From an uncultured bacterium (GTDB taxonomy: Bacteria; Patescibacteriota; Minisyncoccia; Phycocordibacterales; GWA1-40-21): DNA of 64,000 bases. Shown one piece after another: positions 39,980-62,242 of the stretch. Below the pieces are notes generated by a model, which was not told the origin of the DNA, searched no databases, and saw only the letters and a program-made list of their open reading frames with translations. The DNA lies in NCBI GenBank assembly GCA_963716205.1, contig OY970290.1:303417-367416 (forward strand), in the 5' to 3' direction. The position numbers were made by a program, and so were the translations under genes. Each line of letters starts with the position of its first letter. Position 1 is the stretch's first letter.

Positions 39980-39983
39980 AATT

Positions 39984-40967: not shown

Positions 40968-41002
40968 AAAAATTATTTATTGAAAATCATTATACCAAAA
41001 AA

Positions 41003-42211
41003 TTAATTTTTCCCATTATAAATTGCATTCAGCAAACTAAATGTTTTTGAACCAAAAATAGTTTCACCGGTAATATTGTATTTTTGCTGGAACGCTTTCA
41101 CCGCAAGTTCCGTGCATGTGCCGATGGATCCGCTGTGTGGACATTCGTTTCGTGTCATTCCTGCCGGAGGATAATCTCCGTCCATAATCAAAGCTGTCTG
41201 CATCGCATAAATATCTTCAGCGTTTGAATTTTTGCTTGTCACCGGTGTGTTCCATGCATAAATATTTTCACTTGGATCATAAGAAGAAGTCGCAGTGACA
41301 TTTGTATTTCCAGTATAGTAATCCTGCAAACCGAGGTATGTCTGATAGGCGAGATCTTTCAGTGCAATGGGGCGTGTGATCGGATTGACGAATTGCGGTT
41401 CATAAATGTAATCATATTCGATGAGAATGGCTGCTGGCTTTGCCGTGTTATAGGCACCGATGCCGATCAATTGAGGATCTTGAATAAGGCCAGGTTCTTG
41501 AATTGGAAGATCACTTGTCGGATTATAAAGCGACAGTCTGTTGAAAACCGCTTCAGCAACCGGCTTTGTGGTGGAACTGTTGTCATAAATATTCGGCGGA
41601 TAATATTCGACAAAGCCGGTGTATTTGCCGACCGCGTTATAGGCATTGCCGCGATAATTATTGACGCAGATATTAATCATGAAATTTATATCATTCTCAT
41701 CTGCCCACTTCGTGGCACCATAGATGCGGATTGCATCATCTGTTGGCGCAGTATTGTGAACTTCGCCATCATTAAAAATAGCCGCGATTGCCGGATTAGC
41801 CATAGCTGTCTCTTTTGCAGCCTGTTCCCAACTTACGATAGCATTCCAGTTGGTATTAAAATAATTTTGGAATGTTGGATTCCATGCTTGCGTCGTGCGG
41901 GTGACATATGTCTGATAGTTTCCATTGCCATCCAGAAACTCTTGCAAATCATCGCCGATGGTCACTGCCAAATCACGCTCATAGATTTCACCGGATGGTG
42001 TTGCCATCTGTGTTCCGCCCTCGTCCGGCTCATGGGCGGGCACGATCATGACACGGATTTTTTTACCGTTTGAAAATGTAGCAGAAGCCGTTGCAGCCAT
42101 TTTCGGTGCCGCTTTAACGGTGAATTGAAAAGAATAATGATCCGCGGCATACCAAACCCCACCGATGATTACTGCCGCCAAAAATAATTTGAAAATGAAT
42201 TTATTTTTCAC
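41003..42211 (-). CDS. Secreted cell-wall amidase (Amidase_3-like N-acetylmuramoyl-L-alanine amidase) with C-terminal peptidoglycan-binding-like domain
   Basis: Signal peptide; RVMIVPAHEPDEGG...YERDLAVTIGDDLQEFL...YVTRT (Amidase_3 pattern); C-terminal ...TELAVKAFQQKYNITGETIFGSKTFSLLNAIY; 402 aa. Confidence 0.55.
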   Translation of the reverse strand: MKNKFIFKLFLAAVIIGGVWYAADHYSFQFTVKAAPKMAATASATFSNGKKIRVMIVPAHEPDEGGTQMATPSGEIYERDLAVTIGDDLQEFLDGNGNYQTYVTRTTQAWNPTFQNYFNTNWNAIVSWEQAAKETAMANPAIAAIFNDGEVHNTAPTDDAIRIYGATKWADENDINFMINICVNNYRGNAYNAVGKYTGFVEYYPPNIYDNSSTTKPVAEAVFNRLSLYNPTSDLPIQEPGLIQDPQLIGIGAYNTAKPAAILIEYDYIYEPQFVNPITRPIALKDLAYQTYLGLQDYYTGNTNVTATSSYDPSENIYAWNTPVTSKNSNAEDIYAMQTALIMDGDYPPAGMTRNECPHSGSIGTCTELAVKAFQQKYNITGETIFGSKTFSLLNAIYNGKN

Positions 42212-42295
42212 AGGCCAATTGTATCAGACTGAAAATAAAAAGTCATTCAAATTTTAGAAAATAAAAAAGCCCATCTTTTGACGGGCTTTTGTGCT

Positions 42296-42440
42296 TACTT
42301 TTTCTTTCCTCGCTTCTGATTTTTCCTTGCTGTGCTCCGAAGACGACGGGTTACTCCCCAAACTGGCTGGCCGACTCGTGCTGGAACCGTAGTCGGTCAA
42401 GCACTACAATGTCGGTTTGATGAGTTTTATTGTATCAAAA
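42296..42440 (-). ncRNA. Candidate structured non-coding RNA / cis-regulatory leader (unidentified) between two minus-strand terminator hairpins
   Basis: Locally GC-rich (~55% vs ~35-40% flanks) with nested complementary segments (CCGAC...GTCGG, GACCGACT...AGTCGGCC); bracketed by hairpin+T-run at 42481-42515 (after SNF2 gene) and 42262-42295 (50 nt before amidase start). Confidence 0.25.
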
Positions 42441-42515
42441 CGACGCGACTTGAGCTACTTAAAAAGTGACAAAAGTGACAGTTTAACGAGAAAAAGTTAC
42501 ATGGACGTGTAACTT

Positions 42516-45500
42516 TTATCGCACCAGCACAAATCCTTTTTCGGCATCAAGTTTTTTGAAAAGAACATATTTTGAACCAAGTTTCAGTCTTGAAAAATTG
42601 TTCTGTATGATCACCTCACTTGGTATTTTTTCCAGTCCGCCATATTGTTTTTTCAACTTTTCTCCTATTCCAAGTATTTCTTTTTCATTTGCGAGAATTT
42701 TCTTATCTTCGCTATTCAGATCAATTTCATACTTTTTACCACCAATTTCAAACTCACTTATTACTTTTCTAGAATCGCTCAATGTAGCTTTTTTCTTTGA
42801 AATCTTGAGTGCGTCCCTATTCCACGATTTTTCTCCTGCGACCATTTCCGATGTGCTAGCATCCAAATCTTTTTCCTTTTGTAGTGTCACGAACATGGAG
42901 CGATAATTGCTTCCGTGCAGAGCCTCTCCGGTATACTCGTCCACAATTTTAAAACCCAAATCTTTTGTCAACGACTTAAAACTATCGAAATCCTTAAAAT
43001 CAAGCGAGTAAATCATGTTCATGACGAATGATCCGCCCAATTTCAATACTCTGTTCATTTCAGAAAGTACCTTTAGACGTTCGTTATTTCCTTTGATTGG
43101 TTCAGCGGTGTAATGGAATGATAAGCATAAGTTCGTGAAATCGAATGACTTATTTGCGAATGGTATATTCAAGAAACTGCCGGCAACATTTTTTGCACCT
43201 TCGCTTTTCTCACTAGTAAAATGGCGCTCGTTCATATCCATACTGACAATATTATTCTGTAAGTTGTCAGCAATATGTCGTTTGAGCATCTCCGGACCTG
43301 AGGCCACATCAAGAATTTTCACGTCTTTCATTTCTTTATCTTTTATTAGATGCTCAATAATGGATCCTGAGACCCTGTTTGCGTTCGCTTGGTAATTTCT
43401 ACTACCCATATCGAGATAGGCTTCGGCATATTCATCCCCATGCTTTGCGATAAATTCGGAAAAGTCTGATTCACTTACTGATTTTACCGAACGGAAAATA
43501 CGAAATAATTTATCAAAACTCGAAAGATAAAAACGAGCAAGTTCGGCGTTCACGCTGAGATCTGCTGTGCCTTTTTCACTTTCTTTCAAGATTTCTTTTT
43601 CAATCTCTGTGACAGGTATTCCCTTGAGTAATTTTTCAACCGCCTTTTCTTTGATATCAATATATCGATGTATTCCCTCTTCAATAGAATCAGGGACGAT
43701 AGAGGTGACAACATCGAGATCATTTTTCATACCGACACGATATACACGGGATCGTTCCTGTCGTTCCTCGCTTTTCGTCCACGGTTCGTTATAGAACAAA
43801 ACGCTTTCGCCAGCTGAATAATCAACGCCGACTCCGGCAGTCTGCCCGCTAACCACGAGCAATATTTTTCCATCTCCATTTTTAAATTGTTCTTGAATCC
43901 TATCTCTTTCTTCCTTTTCTGTTTCTCCATGGACGATAAGAATTTTAACATCCTCTGGTAAATGAAAATTGTTTAATATCGATTTATCTCCCCGAATAAC
44001 ATCTTCCACGTAGTCGTTTACAAACATAAGAACTTTATTTTTCTGCTTGAATGTTTCGTTTAGATCCTGACCAACGGTTTCCGCTTTGATATTTTTGACC
44101 CCTGGGGTTGCTTCAAGTAATTCTGGGTTCAAAAGGAATTTTCGCATTACCTGAATTTTTTCCGTCGGCGAGAGAGAATCTTCCTCAAGAAGAAGTTCAT
44201 AGATACTTCTTTCATTTTCCGAAAGTCTGCTAAGCAGTACTCTCTCAATCATCTGGGGCATTTCGATATGCTCAGCCAGACTTTTCATTTGCATCTTGTT
44301 GACAAGCAACTTTCTTAATTCGGTGATATCACCGTTGATGATCGAACTAACAAGGTTTTTGTTTTCCATCTTTTCATACTTTTCCGGGTAGAGAAGTTTG
44401 AGTAGCATCGCAACATCCTGAATTTTGTTCGGAACCGGAGTACCGGAAAGAAGCGCCAGATATTGATCCTCTGTTTTTATCATGTCAGCAAGTATAATGG
44501 CGTTCTCCGCACGCACTCCTTCCTTCACATTCTTTATTTCATGCACTTCGTCAATGATCAACATGTCATAACCGATATCGTGCAATTTTTTCGTATTCTC
44601 GGCATTCAGTCTTTCCTGGGAAATCAACACGTAATCGAGATTCTCCCTATCCAAATTGTCCAGATCAAAAATGTTTTCTATGGTCAGGATTTTTGGCGCT
44701 TGTCCTGGTTTGAAATATCCAACTTGTTTCCCGTCCCCCGATACTTCGTCCGAAAGATATTTTTGCCATGTGCTTAACACATTACTTGGAGCTACAATTA
44801 AGCCAAGTTTTACGCCTAAACATTCTTTGGCAAGTATGGCAGAAGCGCTTTTGCCAACTCCCATTTCATCGGCAATAAGCAGACGCTTTTTGTCGGCAAT
44901 TTCCTTAATATTGATAGATTGGTAAATGTCAGGAAAATTCCTGTTTTCCTGAACATTATCAATCAATCGGTCTGGTTTTTCAAAACCGTGATCAACTGAT
45001 CTATAATAGTCCATCGTCGATTGAATAACCTCATCAAGTTCTGAACTGTTGAGTTTTTTGTTTTCATCCGAAATCTTGTTAAAAAATTCTCCAAAAATAA
45101 CTTTATCTGAATCAATTCTTTTATTTCTTTTTTCACCAAGATAATATTGAAGCGCAGAATCCTTCAATACCTCAAAAAGACCCGCTTTCAAATCTTTCTC
45201 TTTTATCAAATTAGATGAGACAGCGTACTCAAGATTTTCGGTATTAAATGGTATTCTGAGAAGTAAATAGTTACCAAGATATTCCGATATGATCTTATTT
45301 GCTTTTTCGACAGGTAAACCCTTGAAGTCTGGGTGCTGGGCGTACAATACGTCCAAAAAGCGTGAGGAACCGAATAAGCCGACTAATTTTCCAAATTTTT
45401 TCGCTTCTTCCGATTCACCCTTTCCTATATCCTCACATTTTACCTTTAATTCTTTTTCCAAATTTTCCTGAGAGTTTTTTTCATTCAATGATTCTTCGCG

Positions 45501-45653
45501 AAGTAGTTTCATTACTTCTTCTTGTGCTTCCGGAGAAAGAAACAAAGTTTTTTTACCGTTTTTTCCACGAAAATAGTCGTATTTTTTCCCAGAGTTCTCC
45601 GGATTTGATTGGGTTGATTCAATCGTATTATTAAAGGGTATTTTTTCGCTCAT
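42516..45653 (-). CDS. SNF2-family helicase fused to C-terminal class-I SAM-dependent methyltransferase domain
   Basis: SNF2_N motifs (LLIADEMGVGKS; MLIIDEVHEIKN), helicase-C region, then ILDVASGPEM...LKLGGSFVM (MTase motifs I/post-I); 1045 aa; last gene of 4-gene operon. Confidence 0.8.
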   Translation of the reverse strand: MSEKIPFNNTIESTQSNPENSGKKYDYFRGKNGKKTLFLSPEAQEEVMKLLREESLNEKNSQENLEKELKVKCEDIGKGESEEAKKFGKLVGLFGSSRFLDVLYAQHPDFKGLPVEKANKIISEYLGNYLLLRIPFNTENLEYAVSSNLIKEKDLKAGLFEVLKDSALQYYLGEKRNKRIDSDKVIFGEFFNKISDENKKLNSSELDEVIQSTMDYYRSVDHGFEKPDRLIDNVQENRNFPDIYQSINIKEIADKKRLLIADEMGVGKSASAILAKECLGVKLGLIVAPSNVLSTWQKYLSDEVSGDGKQVGYFKPGQAPKILTIENIFDLDNLDRENLDYVLISQERLNAENTKKLHDIGYDMLIIDEVHEIKNVKEGVRAENAIILADMIKTEDQYLALLSGTPVPNKIQDVAMLLKLLYPEKYEKMENKNLVSSIINGDITELRKLLVNKMQMKSLAEHIEMPQMIERVLLSRLSENERSIYELLLEEDSLSPTEKIQVMRKFLLNPELLEATPGVKNIKAETVGQDLNETFKQKNKVLMFVNDYVEDVIRGDKSILNNFHLPEDVKILIVHGETEKEERDRIQEQFKNGDGKILLVVSGQTAGVGVDYSAGESVLFYNEPWTKSEERQERSRVYRVGMKNDLDVVTSIVPDSIEEGIHRYIDIKEKAVEKLLKGIPVTEIEKEILKESEKGTADLSVNAELARFYLSSFDKLFRIFRSVKSVSESDFSEFIAKHGDEYAEAYLDMGSRNYQANANRVSGSIIEHLIKDKEMKDVKILDVASGPEMLKRHIADNLQNNIVSMDMNERHFTSEKSEGAKNVAGSFLNIPFANKSFDFTNLCLSFHYTAEPIKGNNERLKVLSEMNRVLKLGGSFVMNMIYSLDFKDFDSFKSLTKDLGFKIVDEYTGEALHGSNYRSMFVTLQKEKDLDASTSEMVAGEKSWNRDALKISKKKATLSDSRKVISEFEIGGKKYEIDLNSEDKKILANEKEILGIGEKLKKQYGGLEKIPSEVIIQNNFSRLKLGSKYVLFKKLDAEKGFVLVR

Positions 45654-45702
45654 ATAGCTATTATTAACGGTGTTTGATAAAAACGCAAGTTCAAATTATC
45701 GA

Positions 45703-47136
45703 CTAGTCACCTTTTAGTCTTTTTAAAATTTTTTTCTTATCGAGACCAGTTTCTTCTGCAATATTATCTAAAGATACCCAACCTTGTGGAGGTTCTGGCG
45801 TTAATTTTTCATCAATAAGTTCAACTAATTTTGGTGAATAATAATATGCCATAGCACCGCCCTTAGGATTTCTGAACATTCCCCTTTCTTTTTCAAGATC
45901 AGAGTTTTTTTCAATCAATCTATCGACAGTTTTTGTAATAGTCAAACTGTTAGCTTTTCTTTTTTCTTTGAGATTTAGTAATGACATCCAATTTTCTGGA
46001 GCCTCTAATATTAAATCTTTCTCAAAAAGTCTGATTAGTTCGGGAGAATAAAAATATGTTACAGGCCCACCTTTTGGATTTTTAAATATCCCCCTTTCTT
46101 TCTCAAGATTGGGATTTTTCTCGATCAATCTCTCAATTACCCCATCGATTCCTGTTCTGCTTATTTTTATTATTTTTAATTTTTCGTGAAGATCCAATGC
46201 TGGTATCCAATTTTCAGGGGCTTCAGGCATCAAGTTCTCATCAATAAGTTCGATTAGTTTGGGTGAATAGTAGAGCGATTTCAACCCATTTGGATTTCTA
46301 AACATTCCGGTTTCCTTCTCAAGCTCAGGGTTATTTCCAATTAATTCATTAATCACCCTTTCGATTGCAACTCTGCTAAACTTTATTTTCTCTTTAAGAA
46401 AACTAGGCATAGATATCCAATTTTCAGGTGCCTCAGGCACCAAGTTCTCATCAATAAGTTCGATTAGTTTAGGTGAAAAATATATAGTGGGCATTCTATT
46501 TTCGTTCGTAAATACTCCCTTTTCTTTCTCAAGTTCAGGAGTTTTTTCAATTAATCTATCAACTATTCCTTCGATCGCCTTTCTACCTAATTTTGGTTTT
46601 TCCTTGAGAAGGCTTGGGAATGATACCCAATCCTTTGGAGATTCTTGATTTAATTTTTTTATTTTATCTTCAATCAATTTCACTAATTCTGGTGAGTAAT
46701 GAATAACTGATTTTCCGGCACTTGGTGAACGAAACATTTTAATATTTTCTTCCGCTTTCAATTTTCCGTCTGATTCATCAATGATTTGTTCAGCATATTT
46801 TCTAACAGTCGATTGATCAATATCATATCTGTCTATAATTGCAGTTTGTGTTGTCCAATCTTTTGGTGCGTCTTCAGTCAAATTTTTCTCAACTAATTCT
46901 ACAATTGCTGGTGAAAAATAAAATGACTTCCCCGTTTCTGAATTTCTAAATATCCCCCTCTCACTTTCAAGTTCTGGAAATTTTTCAATTAATCTATTGA
47001 CTAATCCATTGAACGCAGTTTTTTTGAGATTAAATCTTTTCTTAAGATCAGGTGTAGATACCCAATTTTCCGGAGCCTCCGTTGCTTCGGGTTTTTGTTC
47101 TGACTCAAAATTGTTTGTAAGGAATTTTTCTGACAT
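45703..47136 (-). CDS. Tandem-repeat protein (~6 copies of a ~70-aa HTH-like module)
   Basis: Repeat consensus PE(A)PE-W-s-L-sL-EK-g-sk--I---a-KIIEES-G-L-K--E-G-F-S-K-g-P--YySPkLVELIE--L; 477 aa. Confidence 0.7.
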   Translation of the reverse strand: MSEKFLTNNFESEQKPEATEAPENWVSTPDLKKRFNLKKTAFNGLVNRLIEKFPELESERGIFRNSETGKSFYFSPAIVELVEKNLTEDAPKDWTTQTAIIDRYDIDQSTVRKYAEQIIDESDGKLKAEENIKMFRSPSAGKSVIHYSPELVKLIEDKIKKLNQESPKDWVSFPSLLKEKPKLGRKAIEGIVDRLIEKTPELEKEKGVFTNENRMPTIYFSPKLIELIDENLVPEAPENWISMPSFLKEKIKFSRVAIERVINELIGNNPELEKETGMFRNPNGLKSLYYSPKLIELIDENLMPEAPENWIPALDLHEKLKIIKISRTGIDGVIERLIEKNPNLEKERGIFKNPKGGPVTYFYSPELIRLFEKDLILEAPENWMSLLNLKEKRKANSLTITKTVDRLIEKNSDLEKERGMFRNPKGGAMAYYYSPKLVELIDEKLTPEPPQGWVSLDNIAEETGLDKKKILKRLKGD

Positions 47137-47141
47137 AGATT

Positions 47142-49016
47142 TTAAATATTGTTTCCTTTAATTATCCTTTTTATTTTTTCTTTACTTATTCCGATTTTTT
47201 CCGACAAAGAATCTATACTCTCCCATCCTTTTGGGGCTTTTTCTGGTAAATTTTTCTCAATTAGTTCAATTAGTTTTGGAGAAAAGTATGTTGCGGGTAA
47301 ACCACTTTTTTTAGAGGCAAACATTTTTTCTTCTTTTCCCAATCCATTGTTCGATTCCTCAATTATTTTCTTGGCTATACCCTTAATTATGGAGACACTG
47401 ACATTATTTTTTTCTGCAATCGAAACCAAACTTATCCATCCTTCAGGACTCTGCTGAGGAAGACTTTGTTCAACTAAATCAACTAATTTTGGCGAAAGAA
47501 ATAATGTAGATTTGTTATTCTCAGAAAAGAATATACCCGCTTCTTTTCCGAGTTTCCCCTTCGATTCTTCAATTATTTTTTCAGATCTACTTTTAATTGT
47601 ATTTGGATCAACTTGATTTTTTTTTGCTATAGAAGCTATACTTAACCACCTATCAGGTGCTTCGTGCGGTATTTTTTTTTCAATCAATTCCACTAATTTG
47701 GGAGAGTAATATATTGCTGGCGGACCCATTTTTTTAGCAGAAAATTTTTTCATTTCCTCATTAAGTTTTCCATCTGATTCATTGATTATTTTTTGAGCAA
47801 TATTTTCAATAAACCCCTTACTGATTGAATATTTATTTACAAAGAAATTCGAGTCAGCCCATCCATAAGGAGCTTTCTCGGATAAATCTTCTTCAAGTAA
47901 TCTGACTAGTTTGGGCGAATAATATGATGTTGGAGGACCCTTCTTTTTAGAAAAAAATATTCCTGATTCTTCATCCTCTTTAAGATTCCCGTTTGATTCC
48001 TCGATTATTCTATTAACCTTATATGCAATTCCTGTTTTTGTAACTCCATATTTTTCCGCTAGAGAAATCAGATCTATCCACCCAATAGGTGGTTCTTGGG
48101 GTAGAATCCTTTCTATTGATTCTACTACTTTTGCCGAATAATATTTTGTTGGTTTATGGTTTTTGGCCCAAAATATCCCTGTATCCTTTTCTTCCGAAAG
48201 CTCACCTTTTGACTCCTCAATTATTTTTTTTGCTCTATTTTCATATGCTATTCTACTAATTCCATATTTTTTAGTTAGAGAAATTATATCAGACCATCCC
48301 TCAGGCGCTTTTTCAGGTAAGTCTCTTTCAATTAATTCTACCAGTCTAGGTGAATAATACATTGTTAGATTGCCGGACTTCTTAGACGAGAACATTCCAA
48401 CATTTTCGATTTTTTTGAGATTTTCATTTGAATCCCCAATTATTTTTTGAGCTAAATTTTCAATCGTTTTTTTATTTATTCTGTGTTTTTCAGCAAAAGA
48501 AATCCGATCGACCCATCCATCAGGTGCTTCGTGCGGTATTTTTTTTTCAATCAATTCCACTAATTTGGGAGAGAAAAAAGTTGATGGTTCATTATTTATT
48601 TTTGATGGAAACATTGACCTTTCTTTTTCTAGATTTCCATTTGACTCCTCAATTATTTTTTCAACAATTTTTATAATAGTGGGCATACTAATCCCGTATT
48701 TTTGTACTACAGATGTCATACTCACCCATTCCCCAGGTGCTCTTTTGGGTAGTTTTTTTTCAATTAATTCCACGAGTCTAGGTGAATAATATACTGCAGT
48801 AGGAATTTTTTGTGATGAAAATATCCCAATATCGTCTTTTTTAGTAAGACTTCCGTTCGATTCCCCAATTATTTTTTGAGCCAAATTTTCAATTAGTCCT
48901 CTACCAAATCCATACTTTTCTGTAAGAGAAACCAACATTTGCCATCCATCCGGAGATTCTACTGCTTCCGGTTTTTGTTCTGGCTCAAAATTGCTTATAG
49001 GAAATTTTTCTATCAT
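47142..49016 (-). CDS. Tandem-repeat protein (~9 copies of the same ~70-aa module)
   Basis: Same repeat; N-terminus MIEKFPISNFEPEQKPEAVESPDGW paralogous to neighbours; 624 aa. Confidence 0.7.
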   Translation of the reverse strand: MIEKFPISNFEPEQKPEAVESPDGWQMLVSLTEKYGFGRGLIENLAQKIIGESNGSLTKKDDIGIFSSQKIPTAVYYSPRLVELIEKKLPKRAPGEWVSMTSVVQKYGISMPTIIKIVEKIIEESNGNLEKERSMFPSKINNEPSTFFSPKLVELIEKKIPHEAPDGWVDRISFAEKHRINKKTIENLAQKIIGDSNENLKKIENVGMFSSKKSGNLTMYYSPRLVELIERDLPEKAPEGWSDIISLTKKYGISRIAYENRAKKIIEESKGELSEEKDTGIFWAKNHKPTKYYSAKVVESIERILPQEPPIGWIDLISLAEKYGVTKTGIAYKVNRIIEESNGNLKEDEESGIFFSKKKGPPTSYYSPKLVRLLEEDLSEKAPYGWADSNFFVNKYSISKGFIENIAQKIINESDGKLNEEMKKFSAKKMGPPAIYYSPKLVELIEKKIPHEAPDRWLSIASIAKKNQVDPNTIKSRSEKIIEESKGKLGKEAGIFFSENNKSTLFLSPKLVDLVEQSLPQQSPEGWISLVSIAEKNNVSVSIIKGIAKKIIEESNNGLGKEEKMFASKKSGLPATYFSPKLIELIEKNLPEKAPKGWESIDSLSEKIGISKEKIKRIIKGNNI

Positions 49017-49023
49017 ATAATTA

Positions 49024-51558
49024 TTAGGATATATTTTTATTAATAATCCTTCTAATTTTCTCCGCGTCTATTTTAGTATTTTTTGCAAGTGTCTCTACAC
49101 TAGTCCAACCTTCAGGGGGTTGATCAAGGGTTTCTCGGGAAAATTTTTCATTAATTAGCTCAACTAATCTTGGCGAATAATATATGGCAAGCCCACCAGA
49201 AGATCGAAACATTCCCATATCCATACTTTCCTTCAATTTTCCGTTCGATTCCAGGATTATCTTTTCAGCTGTATTTTTAACCGTGCTTGGATTAAATCCA
49301 TATTTTTTTGCGAGTGACACCCTGTCCATCCAATTTTCTGGTGCCTTCTTGGGCAGTCCTTGTTCGATCAATTCAACCAGTTTTGGTGAAAAATATGTTG
49401 TTAACCTATTATTACTTTTTTTTGACGGAAAAACACCGATTTCTTCATCCTCCTTCAATTTTCCGTTCGATTCATTAATTATTTTTTTAACTCGTTTTTG
49501 GATCGTCAATCTATTAACTTCATATTTTTCCATAAGGGAAACCATATCAGACCATCCCATTGGTGCTTCTTTGGGCAATCCTTGTTCGATTAATTCAATT
49601 AACTTTGGTGAGAAACATGTGGTAGGCATACCACTCTTTTTTGATCGAAATATTCCCATTTCATCCTCTTCCTTGAGTTCACCCTTTGACTCTTCAATTA
49701 TTTTTTTTGCTTTACGTTGAATATACTGATTATCAGTATTATATTTTTCCGCTAGAGATGCCAAATCCGCCCAATCTTTTGGGGCTTCTTTTAGTAAATC
49801 CTTCTCGATTAATTTAACTAATCGTGGTGAAATATATATTGAAGGTCTCTTACTTTTTTTTGACAGGAAAACACCCATTTCGTCTTCTTTCTTGAGCTCT
49901 CCATTTGATTCCTCAATTATCTTTTTAACCCTACCCTCAATTTTTGTTCTACTAGAATCATCTTTTTCTGAGAAAGAAAGCATACTTATCCATCCTTCTG
50001 GAACTTCTTTAGGTAAATTTTTTTCAACTAGTTCAACTAATTTTGGTGAGAGGTATACGGACGGAGGACCACCTTTGGGGGAAGGATAAATTCCCATCTC
50101 CTCATCTTTTTTGATCTTTCCGTTCGATTCTTCAATTATTTTTTTTATTCTATTTTTAATAGTGCTTTTATCTGCTCTACTTTTTTTTGTAACGGAACCT
50201 AAATCCAGCCATCCTTCGGGTACTTCCTTGGGTAGTCTCTGCTCAATCAATTCAATTAGTTTGGGTGAGAAATACATAGTTAACCTATTACGTTTTTTTG
50301 ATGGGAACATACCCATCTCATTGTCTTTTTTGAGTTCCCCCCCTGATTCCTCAATTATTTTTTTGGCCCTGTTTTCAATTATTGTTTTATCTATCCCATA
50401 TTTCTCTGTAAGTGGAATTATACTTATCCATCCATCAGGAGTTTTTTCAGGCAACTGTTGTTTAATCAATTCAACCAATCTTGGTGATAAATGCATGGAA
50501 GGACTACCGTTTTTATTCGAGGGGAAGATTCCCATCTCCTCATCTTTTTTGATCTTTCCGTTCGATTCTTCAATTATTTTTTGGGCTCTGCTTACAATCA
50601 TTGTTGCACCAAATCCGTATCTTTCCATAAGAGAAGATAAATCGGTCCAACCTTCAGGTGCATCTTTCGGCAATTCTTTTTTAATGAGTTCTGCAAACTC
50701 AGGAGAGAAATATGTTGTGGGATAACCACTTTTTTTAGCAGGAAAGGTCCCCATTTTTTTCGCAAGTTTTCCGTTCGATTCCTCGATTATTTTTTGGGCT
50801 CTATTCTCGACTATTGATCTGCTAGTTTTGTATTTTTTTAAAAAAGAAATTAGGTCTATCCATCCTTCGGGGGCTTCTTTCGGTAAATTTTTCTCGACCA
50901 ATTTAACTAACTTTGGTGAGTAATATATCGCTAATCCCCCAGGAGATCGAAACAACCCCGTTTCTTCACCTTCTTTCAGTTCTCCGTTTGATTCCTCAAT
51001 TGTTTTTTGTATTCTTCTTTTAAGAACATTCTCACCAACAGCATATTTTTCCATAAGCGTAGGCGTGTCTACCCAACTCATAGGGGCCTCGTTCGGCAAT
51101 TCTTTTTTAATGAGTTCTGCAAACTCAGGAGAGAAATATGTTCCGGGCACCCTACCCCTTTTAGACATAAATTCCCCAACCTCTTCAGTGAGATTTCCGT
51201 TTGATTCTTGAAGTAATTTTTTAACCCTCTTTTCAATAGTTCCTCTGCTGAGTTTATGCTCCTCAGCAAAAGAAACTAAATCTATCCATCCTTTTGGTGC
51301 TTCCTTAGGTAGATTTTTTTCTATTATCTCTGTCAACTTAGGTGATAAGTATTTTGCCGGTTTACCACCGTTTTTAGATTTAAACATCCCTATTTCCTCT
51401 GCTATTTCTCCGCTCGATTCCTCAACTATTTTCTGGACCCTTCTTTCGATTACACCCTTATCAAATCCAAATTTTTCTGCGAGAGAGGTTATATCTGTCC
51501 ATTCTTCAGGAGCTTCCTGAATTGACTCATTTGAATTAAATGGAAATTGTTCAGTCAT
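49024..51558 (-). CDS. Tandem-repeat protein (~12 copies of the same module); start moved to MTEQFPFNSNES by homology with paralogues
   Basis: 12 repeats, e.g. PEGWTDLSSLMERYGFGATMIVSRAQKIIEESNGKIKKDEEMGIFPSNKNGSPSMHLSPRLVELIKQQLPEKT; ORF extends to 51753 but upstream 65 aa are non-repeat and unlike paralogue N-termini. Confidence 0.7.
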   Translation of the reverse strand: MTEQFPFNSNESIQEAPEEWTDITSLAEKFGFDKGVIERRVQKIVEESSGEIAEEIGMFKSKNGGKPAKYLSPKLTEIIEKNLPKEAPKGWIDLVSFAEEHKLSRGTIEKRVKKLLQESNGNLTEEVGEFMSKRGRVPGTYFSPEFAELIKKELPNEAPMSWVDTPTLMEKYAVGENVLKRRIQKTIEESNGELKEGEETGLFRSPGGLAIYYSPKLVKLVEKNLPKEAPEGWIDLISFLKKYKTSRSIVENRAQKIIEESNGKLAKKMGTFPAKKSGYPTTYFSPEFAELIKKELPKDAPEGWTDLSSLMERYGFGATMIVSRAQKIIEESNGKIKKDEEMGIFPSNKNGSPSMHLSPRLVELIKQQLPEKTPDGWISIIPLTEKYGIDKTIIENRAKKIIEESGGELKKDNEMGMFPSKKRNRLTMYFSPKLIELIEQRLPKEVPEGWLDLGSVTKKSRADKSTIKNRIKKIIEESNGKIKKDEEMGIYPSPKGGPPSVYLSPKLVELVEKNLPKEVPEGWISMLSFSEKDDSSRTKIEGRVKKIIEESNGELKKEDEMGVFLSKKSKRPSIYISPRLVKLIEKDLLKEAPKDWADLASLAEKYNTDNQYIQRKAKKIIEESKGELKEEDEMGIFRSKKSGMPTTCFSPKLIELIEQGLPKEAPMGWSDMVSLMEKYEVNRLTIQKRVKKIINESNGKLKEDEEIGVFPSKKSNNRLTTYFSPKLVELIEQGLPKKAPENWMDRVSLAKKYGFNPSTVKNTAEKIILESNGKLKESMDMGMFRSSGGLAIYYSPRLVELINEKFSRETLDQPPEGWTSVETLAKNTKIDAEKIRRIINKNIS

Positions 51559-51655
51559 ATGACTACGGTATAACAAATTTGCCGAAAATGCAAATAAAAA
51601 CTTGCATAAAATATTAATGTATGTTATGGTAAAGCCCGAAAGAGAGGTGTACCTT

Positions 51656-51973
51656 ATGGATCTCATATCAGTTTCTTCGACGAAGTTTCGCAACAAGGAG
51701 GATGGAACTGAGTTCACGGTTGTCAAAGCCAAACGCTTTGAGAAGCATAACATCAGGAAATACAGACAGTACCTGATGTCACTCTCAGACGGAAAGCTCG
51801 TGGGCGTTTACTTCTACGGCCAACTGGTGCCCCTCATCACCGTAACTACCGGTGTCGAGAAGCTCACCCAGGTGACCGTCGGGAAAAAACTGCTACGTAC
51901 GGCAGCCGAGATAAGCAAGGCCCTGGGAATCAAGAAACCCAAAAAGCCCGTTCCGCTTGTTCTCGTTTCGTAG
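51656..51973 (+). CDS. Hypothetical protein (GC-rich, RBS AGAGAGG, strong terminator)
   Basis: MDLISVSSTKFRNKEDGTEFTVVKAKRF...; 106 aa; visibly higher GC than surroundings. Confidence 0.5.
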   Translation: MDLISVSSTKFRNKEDGTEFTVVKAKRFEKHNIRKYRQYLMSLSDGKLVGVYFYGQLVPLITVTTGVEKLTQVTVGKKLLRTAAEISKALGIKKPKKPVPLVLVS

Positions 51974-51993
51974 TCCGGAAGTACAACAAGACT

Positions 51994-52033
51994 CGCACTC
52001 ATGACTTATGGTCGTGAGTGCGTTTTATTTTTT
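51994..52033 (+). terminator. Rho-independent terminator
   Basis: CGCACTCATGAC-TTATG-GTCGTGAGTGCG then TTTTATTTTTT. Confidence 0.65.
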
Positions 52034-52035
52034 AG

Positions 52036-52070
52036 TTAAAAAGCCTGACCGTAATAGTCAGGCTTTAGTG
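52036..52070 (-). terminator. Rho-independent terminator for minus-strand dinB/small-gene transcript
   Basis: AGCCTGAC-CGTAATAGT-CAGGCT; on minus strand followed by TTTTTAACTAAAAAAT. Confidence 0.5.
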
Positions 52071-52084
52071 AGAAACAAGAGTGA

Positions 52085-52318
52085 TTATAAAGTACCGGTA
52101 ACGGGTTGGGTGATTGTGCCGGTTTTAGCAACGATCTCGTCGCCGTTTTTGAGGACAAGCTGCGAGCCGAGCCGAGCACCATCCATTGTCTTTGCCGTCC
52201 AAACCTTTCCTACCGGAGTTTTATTTATTCCGGAAGTCAGGTCTTCGGTCTTCACCAACTGGAAATTTCCTCCAGTCATCCTCAGCTCAAAGACAGAATC
52301 TCTCGTCACTATTTTCAT
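52085..52318 (-). CDS. Small hypothetical protein co-transcribed downstream of Y-family polymerase
   Basis: Perfect SD AAGGAGG 5 nt upstream of ATG; 77 aa beta-rich; GC-rich. Confidence 0.5.
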   Translation of the reverse strand: MKIVTRDSVFELRMTGGNFQLVKTEDLTSGINKTPVGKVWTAKTMDGARLGSQLVLKNGDEIVAKTGTITQPVTGTL

Positions 52319-52389
52319 AGTTTCCTCCTTTGTTTTGACTGCCCATGGTAAATCTATACATAATGCAATACCTTGTCAATTCATTTAAA

Positions 52390-53634
52390 TTATAAAAACA
52401 ACAAATCTCGATCAAGATCATCCGAATCCGTTCCCTTCTCCTTGTGCCCCATAGCTTTGTGAGTAGAAGCCAGATAGACGACGTTTTTTCCAAATTTCTC
52501 CTCAAGAGAATCGATACGCTCGTGAATCAGTTTGAATTTATCCGATTGATTGCTGTTGCCGAACAGGTCTTTCTGCGAGACGGAATCGGGAATGAGATCC
52601 TCGAGGATCACTCCCGTCGTGCGATATGGAACACCTTTTGTATGTACTGTCTTGAAGCGTTCTCGAATCAAAGGAATGAGTATTTCAGGAGAATTTGTCG
52701 GTGAAGGAAGCATGACAGAGCAAGTTGAATACTTGAAACCGCTTGTTTTGAGGAAGAATGAAAATTTCTTGGCGGCAAGTTTATAATGTCTTGCCTTTCT
52801 ACAGGCTTCCTCCGCATGCTTGGAGAGTTGAGAAAGAAGAAACTCCATGTCGTTTGTTGCTGGGTGGAATGTTCTTGTTTTTTGAATGGATGAATAGCTA
52901 GTCTTCGGATTCGAATCTATTTCCATGACGGAAACCCCGTTGAGTTCCTGCCACATGGTTTCATACGGTTTGGAAAGATTCTCCCTGATCCAATCAATAT
53001 TCTTTTGCGCCAGATTGAGTGCGGTATAAATCTTCTTGTTTTTTAGATACTCCGCTGTCTTTGGTCCTATGCCCCATATCTTTTCAATGGGAGTTTTTGT
53101 GAGGAAGTCGGATATCGTTTCTTTTTCAATCACGGTCAATCCATTCGGTTTGACCCACTTTGAGGCAACCTTGGCAAGAACTTTGGTTGGTGCAAGCCCG
53201 ACTGAAATGGAAAGTCCCAATTCGTCGGCAATTTCTTTCTTGATGCGCTGCGCTATTTCCTTGTATGTCATTTTGAGCGGCTTATCAAGACCCGTCAGAT
53301 CGGCAAAGCACTCATCGATGCTGTATTCTTCAATGTCGTCTGCATATCTGCGAACGATATCAAACATCATGCCGGAATAGCGGACGTATGATTTATAATC
53401 CCCTGGCAGGATAATGACATTGGGGTAATCCCTCTTGATCCGAAAGATCGGCATGCCACGCCTGATACCAAGAGCTTTGGCTTCATACGAGAATGCGGAT
53501 GCGATTCCCCGCTCCTCGCCCGTGACAACGGGAAGGCCTTTGAGTTTCGGATTCTTCGCCATTTCCACGCCGACAAAGAATGCGTCTCCGTCCATGTGAA
53601 GAATGACTTTATTTTTTGGAATTTTGTTGGACAT
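52390..53634 (-). CDS. dinB: Y-family DNA polymerase (DinB/UmuC-like, error-prone translesion polymerase)
   Basis: ILHMDGDAFFVGVE (catalytic Asp palm motif), SIDECFADLTG, little-finger region; 414 aa. Confidence 0.88.
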   Translation of the reverse strand: MSNKIPKNKVILHMDGDAFFVGVEMAKNPKLKGLPVVTGEERGIASAFSYEAKALGIRRGMPIFRIKRDYPNVIILPGDYKSYVRYSGMMFDIVRRYADDIEEYSIDECFADLTGLDKPLKMTYKEIAQRIKKEIADELGLSISVGLAPTKVLAKVASKWVKPNGLTVIEKETISDFLTKTPIEKIWGIGPKTAEYLKNKKIYTALNLAQKNIDWIRENLSKPYETMWQELNGVSVMEIDSNPKTSYSSIQKTRTFHPATNDMEFLLSQLSKHAEEACRKARHYKLAAKKFSFFLKTSGFKYSTCSVMLPSPTNSPEILIPLIRERFKTVHTKGVPYRTTGVILEDLIPDSVSQKDLFGNSNQSDKFKLIHERIDSLEEKFGKNVVYLASTHKAMGHKEKGTDSDDLDRDLLFL

Positions 53635-53691
53635 AGATAAGATAGCTTTTCAGCTTCTTAACTATATCCCTCGAAATGTTTTTGTCATCTA

Positions 53692-54066
53692 TTAACGCTT
53701 ACGAAATCCCGTCTTGTTCAGAGTAATTCTAACCAAAATAAAACAAGTCACGTAGAGCATGAATGTGAACAAGTCAAAACAGTTGTTCGCAAATATGTCC
53801 GGACCGAAAATCAATCCGACAAGAAGAAGGGTTCCGAAATACAAAAAATTGTACAGAAGGCTTCCGAACATTCCCCATCGTCCAATCAGGGCGAGAAGTA
53901 TGGATATCGCAAACAGAATAACGAGCGTGATGACGATGGCGATCCAATGCGCTTTCAGCATCGAAATTAAAATTGACCAAAATAAACGCACATCGTGCAA
54001 CTCAGCGTTATTAAACGCTTGAACGGTTGATGATGAACTCAAAAAAGTAACGGAGACAAACGTCAA
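53692..54066 (-). CDS. Hypothetical polytopic membrane protein
   Basis: 3-4 TM helices; 124 aa. Confidence 0.35.
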   Translation of the reverse strand: MTFVSVTFLSSSSTVQAFNNAELHDVRLFWSILISMLKAHWIAIVITLVILFAISILLALIGRWGMFGSLLYNFLYFGTLLLVGLIFGPDIFANNCFDLFTFMLYVTCFILVRITLNKTGFRKR

Positions 54067-54085
54067 AACCGGAAATATTTATCAA

Positions 54086-54868
54086 TTGGGAAAACATCAT
54101 TTAATCTGTGGAAGCGCTCTCGATCCAAAAATCGTGGAAAAGCTCATGGATGGCGCAAAGGCGGATTTAATTGATGATGATGTCCCATTCAATATTCGGC
54201 TTCCGTACGATAAATATGGCGGAACATATGAAGATGACAAGACAGACGAAGAATATGAGACGTTTGTGAAGACAATCATGCAGAACGCCCTATCGGTGGC
54301 CAAGAATGATGCACATATCGTTTTTTGGTGCGATGAGCGATACGTTTGGTTACTGGAAGTGCTTTATAAAAAATTCAGGATTGATTCAAAGAGGCTCCTT
54401 GTTTGGTGTAAAAACAATTCGTCGCCGACTCCGAGTTGCGCCTTCAACAAAGTGACGGAGTTTGCAGTGTACGGAACTATAGGAACTCCATTTCTTGCCC
54501 AAAATATCACTAATCTGAATCAAATTCAGAATCACGAGATGACGACCGGCAACAGCTTGCACGATGAGATCATGGATTTCTTCAATATCATGCTCACCAA
54601 AAGGTTACCGAGCAACAAATACGAACATTCGGCACAAAAAGATCCGTCCATCCACTACAAAGTTCTGAAAAGATGCACACGGGTCGGAGACGTTGTTTTG
54701 GATCTCACGGCGGGCACGGGAAGTCTCTTGATAGCATGCGAACAATTAAAGAGAATCGCCTACGTATGCGAACTTGATCCAAAGTTCTGCCAGCTCATCA
54801 TCAATCATTACGAAGCGCTTACGGGCGATAAGGCTAAACTGATCCACTCCGATGAAACAACGAATTAA
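54086..54868 (+). CDS. Beta-class DNA methyltransferase (N6-adenine or N4-cytosine)
   Basis: N-terminal HHLICGSALDP...ADLIDDDVPFN (motif IV, DPPY-like) followed by C-terminal VLDLTAGTGSLLIA (motif I, FxGxG) = circularly permuted beta-class order; 260 aa. Confidence 0.8.
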   Translation: MGKHHLICGSALDPKIVEKLMDGAKADLIDDDVPFNIRLPYDKYGGTYEDDKTDEEYETFVKTIMQNALSVAKNDAHIVFWCDERYVWLLEVLYKKFRIDSKRLLVWCKNNSSPTPSCAFNKVTEFAVYGTIGTPFLAQNITNLNQIQNHEMTTGNSLHDEIMDFFNIMLTKRLPSNKYEHSAQKDPSIHYKVLKRCTRVGDVVLDLTAGTGSLLIACEQLKRIAYVCELDPKFCQLIINHYEALTGDKAKLIHSDETTN

Positions 54869-55463
54869 AGCCCCGTTTCTCGAGGAATTGAGAAAAATTC
54901 CTATCATCAAGATGACTACTGATAAATTGGGTATATCGAGGAACACAATCTATCGCTGGATGAAGCTAAACAAGAAATTCAAAGATGATGTTCATGAGGC
55001 GCTCATGGAAGGAGAAAAAAATCTCAATGAAATGGTTGAGTCAATGCTCGTGAAAAAGGCGCTCAACGAGGAGGACCTGCGTGCAATAATGTTTTATCTC
55101 ACTCGCAGGCATCCAAAATACAAGCAAAGCATTGAAAATTCCAAACAAATTTCCGAAACAGAAAGCTCACTCGACATTGCGGAGAGAAATATCCGATCAC
55201 TGCTCAAACGGGGAGACAAAGACATCACCAAGTTTGTCTTGGAAAGATCAAAACCTGATGTGTACAGAAAAATACCTGCAGATGAATTGCGAGAGAATCA
55301 AGCGGAAGCAGAGCGATTGAGAGAACTTGAAAGAATCAGTAAAACGACCGAACCATGGGACAGTCTGAAACAGCATTCAAAAAAGTACATACTGATGATG
55401 AGAGAAGCTGAAAAGAAAATCCGAGAAGAAAAATCGGACACCGAAGAAATAGATAAAAAATAA
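54852..55463 (+). CDS. HTH-domain protein (terminase-small-subunit-like / possible R-M controller)
   Basis: N-terminal HTH (TTDKLGISRNTIYRWMKLNKKF), charged coiled-coil C-terminus; overlaps MTase stop by 17 nt; 203 aa. Confidence 0.45.
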   Translation: MKQRIKAPFLEELRKIPIIKMTTDKLGISRNTIYRWMKLNKKFKDDVHEALMEGEKNLNEMVESMLVKKALNEEDLRAIMFYLTRRHPKYKQSIENSKQISETESSLDIAERNIRSLLKRGDKDITKFVLERSKPDVYRKIPADELRENQAEAERLRELERISKTTEPWDSLKQHSKKYILMMREAEKKIREEKSDTEEIDKK

Positions 55464-56240
55464 TTATTCGAGAATGGCATTTAATATATCCATTCTTGCT
55501 TGTACGTTTGGCATGTCAGCATCTACAGTTTTTACTCCCCCATTCATCAGTTCTCTGAGATAAAGTGAAACCGAAAATATACCGAGTGTTTTAAACGGTG
55601 TTTGTATGTTTTCATTGTGCAAATCTGAAACGGAAATATGGGAAAAAGGTTTAAGGTTATTGTCTTTTGATATCGGCATCCAATAGATGATGACGGGTTC
55701 TGCAATGACATTTTCATATGATTTGGGTTTTTTCATTTCAACCAATACTTTAGTCACATTGTTGGGAAATGTTTTATCGGAGAAAGATTTCAATTGCTGT
55801 TGCCAATAATATTCCGCAACTTTAATCGTCTCGTCTCTATCAATTGTTAATTTTTGACCAAAAGAATTGTAAGCTCCTATTTTTGGGCAAGGCTTACCAG
55901 ACCAAGAATACCTATTTTCTCTTTCGATATTAGGTGCACCAAAAATACTCAAAAATTCATCTCGAGTTAGTATTTTATCTTTTCCTTTCCATATGCCGTA
56001 TTTAGGCGACCAATCACCAAAAGTTGTCTTACCTGTAGTATGGTTTTTCATTTCAAAACCATCTATATCAGGTGTATTACTTGCATTATGAGCAACACCC
56101 ATTTGTGTTTCAAGCCAATGACCACCCCTACCATCATGTCCTTGATTGGAAGTTGATGTATTAGGAACTCTACCTTTTACATTCTTCAGAAAAAGATTAA
56201 TGATCTTTTCTTTTATTTTTTTAGTTTCTGTTGCAGTCAT
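55464..56240 (-). CDS. Hypothetical protein; candidate type II restriction endonuclease by context (convergent on MTase/HTH pair)
   Basis: No recognised family; assignment by position only; 258 aa. Confidence 0.3.
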   Translation of the reverse strand: MTATETKKIKEKIINLFLKNVKGRVPNTSTSNQGHDGRGGHWLETQMGVAHNASNTPDIDGFEMKNHTTGKTTFGDWSPKYGIWKGKDKILTRDEFLSIFGAPNIERENRYSWSGKPCPKIGAYNSFGQKLTIDRDETIKVAEYYWQQQLKSFSDKTFPNNVTKVLVEMKKPKSYENVIAEPVIIYWMPISKDNNLKPFSHISVSDLHNENIQTPFKTLGIFSVSLYLRELMNGGVKTVDADMPNVQARMDILNAILE

Positions 56241-56308
56241 TCCGCTATATTAGCAAAAAAGAACATTAAAGGCGATATTTAATGCGACTTGATTACTGCT
56301 CAACTCGG

Positions 56309-56379
56309 CTGGGGGACTAGGAATCGGACCTAGATTAAAAGCTTCAAAGGCTTCTGTCCTACCGTTAGACGATCCCCCA
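56309..56379 (-). tRNA. tRNA-Gln (anticodon UUG)
   Basis: Manually folded on the minus strand. Acceptor UGGGGGA/UCCCCCA is a perfect 7 bp. U8, D-stem GUCU/GGAC and D-loop with GG are present. Anticodon stem GAAGC/GCUUU with loop CUUUGAA gives U33 and anticodon UUG. T-stem is CUAGG/CCUAG. The T-loop UCCGAUU carries the non-canonical C55. Discriminator is G. Confidence 0.6.
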
Positions 56380-56466
56380 ATATCAAACAAACCAAGAATA
56401 CGTGAAAAAGCTTTATTTTTCAAGTTTAGATAAATGATTTTGCTTTTTTAGTGTTCCCGTATTAGA

Positions 56467-56883
56467 ATGAAAGCAATTATGGACTTACCCGAACATACAA
56501 AAAATTTTGTTGATACAGGAACAAAGATTGATCAAAAAATTGAAGAAGTAAAAGAGAAATTGGACGAATGCGATTCTGTCATTAAAAAAGAATTTATAAT
56601 GCTTAGGGCAACTTCCGTAGAAAATAAAAAATGGTTGGCAAAAATTACAGACAATGTGTTCGGAAAAATAATATATCGTCTCAAGGAAAAATTAGAATTA
56701 TATACGTTGTCCGAGATTGAACAATATGAAAAAGCGGCTTTCACAAGAGATTGTATTGCTATTTTGGAAAATTTATTTGTTAAAGTGCATGAAGCGGATG
56801 AGGTGCCAAAAGGATCACTCGAAAAATTCCATAGTGCCATATCAAAATATTATGAGAAGCTCGGCGAAACTAATTTTTTGTAA
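56467..56883 (+). CDS. Hypothetical protein
   Basis: 138 aa ORF, no recognisable motif. Confidence 0.4.
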   Translation: MKAIMDLPEHTKNFVDTGTKIDQKIEEVKEKLDECDSVIKKEFIMLRATSVENKKWLAKITDNVFGKIIYRLKEKLELYTLSEIEQYEKAAFTRDCIAILENLFVKVHEADEVPKGSLEKFHSAISKYYEKLGETNFL

Positions 56884-62096: not shown

Positions 62097-62170
62097 GAAG
62101 ATATGGTATCATAAAATGAATAGTAAAGACTTCACTTTTTATATCCGATCTGCTATTATGGCGACGTATT

Positions 62171-62242
62171 CCGGGATAGCTCAGCGGTAGAGCGATCGCC
62201 TGTTAAGCGATTGGTCGTAGGTTCGATCCCTACTCCCGGAGC
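62171..62242 (+). tRNA. tRNA-Asn (anticodon GUU)
   Basis: Manually folded. Acceptor UCCGGGA/UCCCGGA is 7 bp. D-arm is GCUC-AGCGGUA-GAGC. Anticodon stem AUCGC/GCGAU with loop CUGUUAA gives anticodon GUU. T-arm is GUAGG-UUCGAUC-CCUAC. Discriminator is G. Confidence 0.85.

Follow-up and report, generated by a model that had tools for sequence, protein, structure and literature searches.

We analysed a stretch of 64,000 nucleotides (nt) from the chromosome of a bacterium of the Paceibacterota, a lineage of the candidate phyla radiation (CPR). This whole stretch is called the window, and all coordinates and strands follow its numbering. Next to its dnaX gene lies a tRNA-Gln, and beyond the 3´ end of this tRNA a block of accessory genes fills positions 42454 to 56283. 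From the sequence comparisons presented here we regard the block as probably an integrated genomic island, mosaic in make-up and bereft of its recombinase, which occupies a hot spot formed by the trailer that follows tRNA-Gln. The features of the block and its surroundings are these (ORF, open reading frame; aa, amino acids; GC3, GC content at third codon positions; HTH, helix-turn-helix; att, attachment site):

41003-42211: amidase gene, adjoining the left side of the island.
42265-42290, minus strand: intrinsic terminator (11-bp stem and T-run) between the att relics and the amidase gene.
42340-42392, minus strand: relic pseudo-tRNA-Gln 3´ end with trailer, resembling the remnant of an older att site; its derived string GTCGGCCAGCCA is common with the distal repeat of a related locus, L009.
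42437-42455, minus strand: attR-like junction, distal core TCAAGTCGC with the ancestral right arm GTCGTTTTGA...
42516-45653, minus strand: SNF2-methyltransferase, a fusion of 1045 aa (Pfam SNF2-rel_dom, Helicase_C and Methyltransf_11).
45703-47136, minus strand: repeat-array protein 3, 477 aa (leader, 6 full units and a half unit).
47142-49016, minus strand: repeat-array protein 2, 624 aa (leader, 8 full units and a half unit).
49024-51558, minus strand: repeat-array protein 1, 844 aa (leader, 11 full winged-helix-like units of about 71-74 aa and a terminal half unit).
51656-51973, plus strand: small ORF, 105 aa, GC3 0.65, followed by a terminator with a 13-bp stem (stem-loop 51994-52022, T-rich tail).
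52085-52318, minus strand: small ORF, 77 aa; strong ribosome-binding site, terminator hairpin of its own at 52040-52068.
52390-53634, minus strand: Y-family DNA polymerase IV (DinB), apparently intact (Pfam IMS, IMS_C and IMS_HHH; NCBIfam Pol IV).
53692-54066, minus strand: small hypothetical membrane protein, 124 aa, with 3-4 transmembrane segments predicted from hydropathy and no family match.
54035-54868 (ORF called from 54086), plus strand: 5´-truncated phage-type ParB-N6/N4 DNA methyltransferase (N6_N4 methylase domain, alignment to homologues).
54852-55463, plus strand: terminase-small-subunit-like (terS-like) HTH protein, 203 aa, overlapping the methylase stop codon (best PHROG match 1.4e-10).
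55464-56240, minus strand: LlaMI / MvaI-BcnI-like type II restriction endonuclease, 258 aa (Pfam RE_LlaMI 1.7e-23; PADLOC REase_II 9e-36).
56277-56306, minus strand: attL-like junction, trailer left arm GAGTTGAGCAGTAA and core TCAAGTCGC, then island sequence.
56307-56379, minus strand: tRNA-Gln (UUG), the conserved anchor, with its 3´ end (56307) towards the block (ARAGORN; Rfam 59.7 bits).
62170-62242, plus strand: tRNA-Asn (ARAGORN, Rfam).

The protein scan behind this inventory covered all ORFs of at least 80 aa in the block, plus two smaller newly called ones. Domain scans agree with the gene content given in the original prediction, that is, an SNF2-methyltransferase/repeat-protein operon, a Y-family polymerase, and membrane and hypothetical genes, and the 3´ end of tRNA-Gln does face the block as stated there. 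Neither the 105-aa nor the 77-aa ORF matched a family in PHROGs or the domain scans. With their own terminators they are better calls than a 126-aa ORF at 52008-52388 (plus strand), which is probably spurious. The true start of repeat-array protein 1 is M66 of a longer ORF, in agreement with an 844-aa public gene model (P0241). Rfam recognised the two tRNAs only, and in the intergenic stretch 42150-42560 it gave just sub-threshold terminator-like matches.

One line of evidence comes from the two ends of the block. No convincing repeat of the tRNA 3´ end had been reported at the left boundary, and for the tRNA itself this stands. No stretch of at least 9 nt from its 3´ half recurs exactly within 36000-56300, and when tRNA-Gln plus 30 nt is compared with the whole window, the best matches reach at most 10 nt, which is chance level. 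A direct repeat exists nevertheless, and it is a repeat of the tRNA trailer. Its 9-nt core TCAAGTCGC is found at 56284-56292, where it begins 15 nt beyond the tRNA 3´ end and spans nt 15-23, and again at 42445-42453, inside the interval of 42.2-42.5 kb in which the left edge had been sought. In several relatives the trailer is a hairpin, which at L009 reads AGTTGAGCGT-AGTTCGA-ACGCTCAAGT, then CGTGTTGTT. The 3´ part of the trailer contains a 14-nt motif, CTCRAGTCGYGTYG, of which 1.2 Mb of related DNA, searched on both strands, holds six copies. All six lie downstream of tRNA-Gln in the same orientation. The window holds one copy of it, at 42441-42454 on the minus strand, where 0.09 would be expected by chance, and this copy falls within the 304-nt gap at the left edge of the block. 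When 80 nt of tRNA-Gln flank from L009 or from L017 are aligned to both strands of the window, the best match falls on the same site. With an nhmmer profile made from the sites of relatives alone, the window gives matches at 56329-56277 (E 5e-8) and 42455-42437 (E 0.0044) and nowhere else.

Outside the core the two copies differ. The one next to the tRNA keeps the left arm in its ancestral form and diverges after it; in the distal one the left side is foreign and the right arm is ancestral. A rebuilt empty site, TCCTAGTCCCCCAGCCGAGTTGAGCAGTAATCAAGTCGCGTCGTTTTGATACAATAAAACTCATCAAAC, made by joining the outer arms, aligns end to end with the uninterrupted site of L009. In scores against L009, the rebuilt empty site reaches 52, attL 41, attR 31 and the rebuilt inner (element) junction 20. 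The island so bounded measures 13.83 kb, and its right end (56283) lies 23 nt from the tRNA 3´ end. For the excised island we predict the circular junction AACTGTCACTTTTGTCACTTTTTAAGTAGCTCAAGTCGCATTAAATATCGCCTTTAATGTTCTTTTTTG; neither this junction nor the att motif was found in viral contigs.

A local alignment of the left boundary with the 3´ half of tRNA-Gln had been proposed as a check. It yields no firm match, only the weak pseudo-tRNA relic (65% identical over 55 columns, rank 10 of 2538 windows, nhmmer E 14). Gap-rich chance matches elsewhere in the window score as high, and we retain the relic only because its derived bases are common with the distal copy of L009. A gap-rich likeness to the tRNA-Gln 3´ end and trailer at 14596-14666 (minus strand) also ranks among the top scores of the window and may be due to chance. 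At the borders between the modules of the block, with the repeat genes masked, we found no sensibly placed exact direct or inverted repeats. An exact 16-nt direct repeat, CATGACGGAAACCCCG, at 39026-39041 (in the LUD gene) and 52924-52939 (in DinB) is probably a chance occurrence.

For comparison with relatives we anchored their loci on dnaX, whose identity ranges from 73 to 92%. The closest relative is L094 (92%), and the nearest one with a long locus is L002 (88%). A metagenome scan with dnaX added relatives of at most 81% identity, none nearer than those from the protein index; in scans of genome contigs the amidase gave no locus, and LUD gave one, too distant for use. In all compared relatives the order tRNA-Asn, PF1765-like gene, S30AE, fmt, def, dus, dnaX, tRNA-Gln is kept, and in every one of them synteny breaks off at the 3´ end of tRNA-Gln. 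The first 72 of the 73 nt of tRNA-Gln are the same as the 72-nt tRNA-Gln of L002 and L094. The nucleotide homology of L094 to the window ends at 56308, the last tRNA base, and a small GIY-YIG gene comes next. L002 continues beyond tRNA-Gln with 4.4 kb of unrelated genes, then with LUD (83% identical), BacA (81%) and SLT (69%). In about 90 related loci (including L002-L005, L007-L013 and L088-L094), no protein of the block is encoded at a distance of up to 10 kb from dnaX. The comparison with relatives that had been suggested thus shows the block missing beside dnaX and tRNA-Gln, and conserved synteny across the whole block was not seen in these loci.

Some further observations concern the flanks. 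To the left, at 39218-42211, the genes of an ABC-2 permease and an ABC ATPase (both with GC3 0.50) and of the amidase may themselves form a variable segment of greater age. L007 has a homologue of the amidase (29% identical) at a distance of 0.5 kb from tRNA-Gln. Between dnaX and tRNA-Gln of the window, a spacer of 490 nt (56380-56883) contains a 138-aa ORF on the opposite strand that overlaps the dnaX stop codon. This ORF is weakly conserved (31%) in L094, and the spacer of L002 has only about 48 nt.

Judged by these sequences, insertions have repeatedly landed at the tRNA-Gln trailer in this lineage. In four relatives the trailer element bounds unrelated insertions of 0.35-8.5 kb. At L008 an 18-nt perfect repeat of the tRNA 3´ end lies 8.5 kb downstream, with the trailer motif after the distal repeat. 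Between the repeats are genes for a large serine recombinase, a methylase fusion of 880 aa, an IS200-type transposase and a nuclease. In L009 and L011 a proximal and a distal copy of the element enclose 1.07 and 1.57 kb, respectively, and the distal copy of L009 contains a degenerate tRNA 3´ end. L094 carries its GIY-YIG cassette between the tRNA and an intact hairpin. In a sister species (L088-L093, dnaX 82%) more than 24 contigs have identical dnaX, yet the segment beside tRNA-Gln varies from strain to strain. It is occupied either by DUF2779, HEPN_AbiU2 and an N6 methylase or by Fic, MazG and an SLFN-helicase/S24 protein, and these cassettes are bounded by a small GIY-YIG gene. A DinB gene is present or absent near tRNA-Asn of this species, again by strain; DinB of the window is 69% identical to it, and core genes span 60-82%.

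The other tRNA of the window offers a picture of an intact element in this genome. A 568-aa serine recombinase with a Resolvase N-terminal domain is encoded at 62230-63936 (minus strand), and its gene reaches 13 nt into the 3´ end of tRNA-Asn. This is probably the sign of a second integrated element, which has kept its recombinase and runs off the right end of the window. L005 shows the same recombinase geometry at its tRNA-Asn.

The composition of the block is not uniform. The GC-richer segment noticed in the original prediction is real, with GC of 0.42-0.44 over 51-55 kb as against 0.33-0.34 over the repeat genes. GC3 is 0.37 in the SNF2-methyltransferase gene and 0.23-0.30 in the repeat-array genes. 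It rises to 0.65 and 0.53 in the 105-aa and 77-aa ORFs, is about 0.50 in DinB, the membrane ORF and the methylase, and then falls to 0.44 in the terS-like gene and 0.26 in the nuclease gene. Its standard deviation (SD) is 0.138 in the island and 0.056 in the rest of the window (2.5-fold), and no other run of 11 genes in the window exceeds 0.058; the mean GC3 is similar to that of the backbone.

The methylase, HTH and nuclease genes had been taken for one module. The genes are present, but the first two are a truncated phage-type ParB-methylase and a terS-like gene, and the nuclease gene differs from them in GC3. Methylase homologues have 417-442 aa, some of them with ParB_N. The window copy lacks the ParB-N domain (about 146 aa) and aligns from 54035 to aa 147-416 of a 418-aa homologue with 81% identity. 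The HTH protein falls to terminase small subunit families of PHROGs and is 44% and 35% identical to the 128- and 132-aa proteins of L101 and L102. There, the protein of 128-132 aa sits between a ParB-methylase and a large ORF, and the large ORF of L102 and L103 has a Terminase_6N domain. Phage relatives of the methylase are encoded directly upstream of terS and terL (the gene of the terminase large subunit), and the same order is found in Lactobacillus and Streptococcus prophages. In the block there is no trace of a terminase large subunit. Viral contigs gave no relative of the terS-like protein and one methylase match of 31%. By homology and gene order, these two genes appear to be a fragment of a CPR phage packaging module, not a working module.

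The family match of the LlaMI-like nuclease is confined to its N-terminal part of about 150 aa. Its GC3 of 0.26 compares with 0.51 in the neighbouring methylase, itself of the truncated phage ParB type, and the set does not look like a clean restriction-modification unit. CCNGG is depleted to 0.69, no stronger than most other palindromic sites tested, which is uninformative on nuclease activity. As a separate observation, GGCC is strongly rare in the whole window (41 observed against about 132 expected, ratio 0.31), far beyond the other palindromes tested, which hints at past or present restriction pressure of the HaeIII type.

We suggest the following history of the block. The entry point would be the conserved hairpin/terminator element after tRNA-Gln and not the tRNA itself. 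Site-specific recombination, with a crossover within the 9-nt core TCAAGTCGC, 15-23 nt beyond the tRNA 3´ end, would have left attL (tRNA, left arm and core) at 56277-56306 and attR (core and ancestral right arm) at 42437-42455. The pseudo-tRNA relic, just outside the island, would be older. The recombinase would then have been lost, leaving the island immobile and fixed in place. The cargo would be a mosaic of at least four pieces: the SNF2/repeat operon; the small ORFs with DinB and the membrane protein; the phage packaging fragment; and the LlaMI-like nuclease. We regard the block as decayed and mosaic because it has no recombinase, because the phage methylase is 5´-truncated and lacks its terminase large subunit, and because GC3 spreads 2.5 times as widely in it as elsewhere in the window. 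The original prediction offered either an old, degraded island or a region assembled by multiple insertions; absence from relatives, the att-like repeat, reuse of the site, decay and mosaicism all speak for this description.

Several points weigh against an integrated island. Firstly, in the proteins scanned with Pfam, PADLOC, NCBIfam and PHROGs there is no integrase, recombinase, transposase, excisionase or other mobility domain, as had been predicted for the integrase. Secondly, the exact repeat has 9 nt only and is by itself at chance level, so the case for an island rests on the conserved flanking arms and on the comparison with relatives. Thirdly, no empty-site genome above 92% dnaX identity is in the set; L094 has a different small insertion and L002 a different trailer. 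Fourthly, the amidase and ABC genes, predicted as a housekeeping flank, do lie left of the block but are not beside LUD in L002, so that the variable zone is wider than the island. Finally, two parts of the cargo are not foreign in an obvious way. DinB, about as diverged from its sister-species copy as core genes are, is native to the lineage, albeit mobile within it, and in other CPR lineages the SNF2-methyltransferase/repeat operon has core genes (mur/dcw, rpoBC) as neighbours.

It is possible, if rather doubtful, that the block grew by stepwise accretion, through several separate insertions or replacements at the tRNA-Gln hot spot that brought, for example, the phage remnant, the DinB module and the SNF2/repeat operon. 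The abrupt steps of GC3 (0.23-0.37 in the operon, 0.44-0.65 from the small ORFs to the terS-like gene, 0.26 in the nuclease gene) would fit such a course. So would the cut of the methylase at 54035, beside the small membrane ORF that divides it from DinB, and the reuse of the hot spot in relatives with its strain variability in the sister species; the pseudo-tRNA relic would imply at least one earlier event. However, the relatives-only profile finds the att element at the two ends and nowhere inside the block, and the module borders are free of internal direct repeats. The mosaic could equally pre-date a single integration, having been built in the donor.

Another explanation dispenses with insertion and treats the block as a lineage-specific stretch that ordinary gene turnover and rearrangement would leave in a CPR chromosome of poor synteny, with the adjacency to tRNA and the short repeat being coincidental. 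We consider this unlikely. It would account for the missing mobility genes and for a repeat of 9 nt, for the zone between the island and LUD, which also differs from L002, and for an operon and a DinB typical of CPR or of the lineage. It does not account for a 14-nt motif that is specific to tRNA-Gln trailers across 1.2 Mb and recurs at the predicted place and in the predicted orientation. The end-to-end match of the rebuilt empty site to L009, the break of L094 homology at the tRNA end, the phage gene fragments and the extreme spread of GC3 argue against it too. That the whole block is the remains of one CPR temperate phage beside tRNA-Gln is very unlikely: the ParB-methylase and terS-like gene do stand in phage order, DinB-like polymerases and restriction genes are known in phages (PHROG 1268) and temperate phages typically integrate beside tRNAs, but Pfam and PHROGs reveal no terminase large subunit, portal, capsid, tail, lysis, repressor or integrase gene in the block, about 10 of the 13.8 kb are an SNF2/repeat operon that is chromosomal among core genes elsewhere, and the SNF2-methyltransferase fusion, the att motif and the junction sequence are all absent from viral contigs.

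An integrated island remains our preferred reading, and its largest cargo is the operon at 42516-51558. Both lobes of the SNF2 motor score above the Pfam threshold, and aa 259-687 align to SsoRad54 (1z63), CHD1L and INO80, the best PDB matches; by these alignments the 1045-aa protein is a true SWI2/SNF2 motor, predicted to translocate on double-stranded DNA. The methyltransferase domain is a generic class-I Methyltransf_11 that uses S-adenosylmethionine (SAM), and its PDB sequence matches gave no substrate class. The SNF2-methyltransferase family is CPR-wide (Levybacteria, Vogelbacteria, Saccharimonadia). The best match to the window protein reaches just 49% identity, which suggests that close relatives of this genome do not have it. 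Many homologues carry N-terminal arrays of repeats of DNA-binding type (the window-type unit in P0122, HTH_29 in P0123, HNH_repeat in P0131). Others are preceded by separate array genes, two of them in a Levybacteria genome, within the mur/dcw cluster, and six beside rpoBC in another genome (L097), where all six share the C-terminal tail SPDQADELMRGLEEEI. The sharing of C-terminal half units or of a C-terminal tail among array proteins varies by lineage (the window; L086, L097 and L095). Viral contigs (IMG/VR) contain generic SNF2 helicases only and no SNF2-methyltransferase fusion. From this, together with the core-gene setting elsewhere, we conclude that the cargo operon is not intrinsically mobile.

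The three array proteins of the window have 6, 8 and 11 full units (25 in total) of 69-76 aa, each with a terminal half unit. All four operon proteins share the leader MSEKFxxNNFExEQ, which at the N-terminus of the SNF2 protein is joined to the second half of a repeat unit. The unit profile recognises 279 representative proteins among 1.84 billion. AlphaFold2 models one unit with a predicted local distance difference test (pLDDT) of 85.5 and two units with 88.1, as separate winged-helix-like domains with a short linker, each made of a strand, two helices, a beta-hairpin wing and a last helix. A PDB fold search with the one- and two-unit models gave no significant match (best E 0.025, TM-score about 0.45), with a weak likeness to winged HTH (wHTH) folds. 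Variation within the unit is greatest in the columns of the HTH turn, of the wing and of the beginning of the second (recognition) helix. An overlapping alignment of three units was dropped, as MAFFT had shifted its register. In the literature searched there was nothing specific on an SNF2-methyltransferase/repeat system in CPR.

Our guess is that the cargo serves DNA-directed defence or other DNA transactions, and that the arrays, bound to many sites on DNA, bring in or guide the SNF2-methyltransferase. We would tentatively consider the operon an undescribed CPR-specific DNA-targeting system, in which an SNF2 translocase with its fused, non-canonical methyltransferase works with separate or fused winged-helix arrays as diversified "readers". 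If true, it would be a multivalent, modular device for recognition of DNA in defence or chromosome management, and the leaders with the half units or tails might act as docking elements.

Little has been charted of mobile DNA and of integration hot spots in CPR/Patescibacteria, whose genomes are tiny. As a class, the island is of a well-known, textbook kind, and the exact attachment element with its reuse in CPR is a modest addition; the SNF2-methyltransferase/repeat-array cargo may be new. What the locus offers is a precisely bounded island together with a reusable attachment element (trailer hairpin, core TCAAGTCGC) that several Paceibacterota lineages use. The element provides a handle for finding further islands and defence cassettes in such genomes and for telling empty from occupied sites in metagenomes. 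Of wider interest is the CPR-wide SNF2-methyltransferase with its repeat-array partners, the part of the cargo most worth following up.

Integrase-less "anchored" islands at tRNA loci are known, for example among the pathogenicity and fitness islands of Enterobacteria. The block resembles tRNA-associated islands in its place beside a tRNA 3´ end, its direct repeat of the target site, its absence from relatives, its mosaic structure and accessory cargo, and the reuse of its site by other elements in relatives. It differs in that the core lies in a trailer hairpin, 15-23 nt past the tRNA, that the repeat has 9 nt, that the integrase is gone, and that it resides in the genome, about 0.7 Mb in size, of a CPR bacterium. 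A second known kind comprises defence islands and integration hot spots that lie between conserved core genes. Here, too, conserved flanks (dnaX and tRNA-Gln; LUD, BacA and SLT) enclose a variable interior rich in nucleases, methylases and helicases, and the sister species swaps cassettes at the same tRNA; in contrast to defence islands, only the LlaMI-like nuclease specifically matches a known defence family.

As in DISARM, BREX and Zorya, an SNF2 ATPase and a SAM methyltransferase are encoded together near restriction-type genes in a variable region. Here, however, both are fused in one chain, the methyltransferase is of the Methyltransf_11 kind and not a DNA N6/N4/C5 methylase, and winged-helix-like repeat arrays are present, which none of those systems has. 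PADLOC and NCBIfam detect no signature or partner genes of DISARM, Zorya, BREX or Dpd in the block. The SNF2 matches in PADLOC (ZorD, DpdE, DrmD and BrxH; ZorD 1.9e-21) reflect the shared helicase core only, and the NCBIfam SNF2 scores are about 50 against cut-offs of at least 500.

The phage fragment is comparable to the ParB-methylase/terS/terL head of phage genomes in that a methylase is followed by a small terminase-like HTH protein, the methylase being 81% identical to a CPR homologue with a terS-like gene and a large ORF next to it; the window differs by having neither the ParB-N domain nor the terminase large subunit. As for the repeat arrays, the one-unit model is nearest to MarR-family wHTH proteins and the two-unit model to ScpB and SarS. 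These weak likenesses, taken from predicted structures, may point to a relation in fold to tandem winged-helix proteins such as ScpB, MukE and SarS, from which the arrays are set apart by their 6-11 units per protein, as against one or two.

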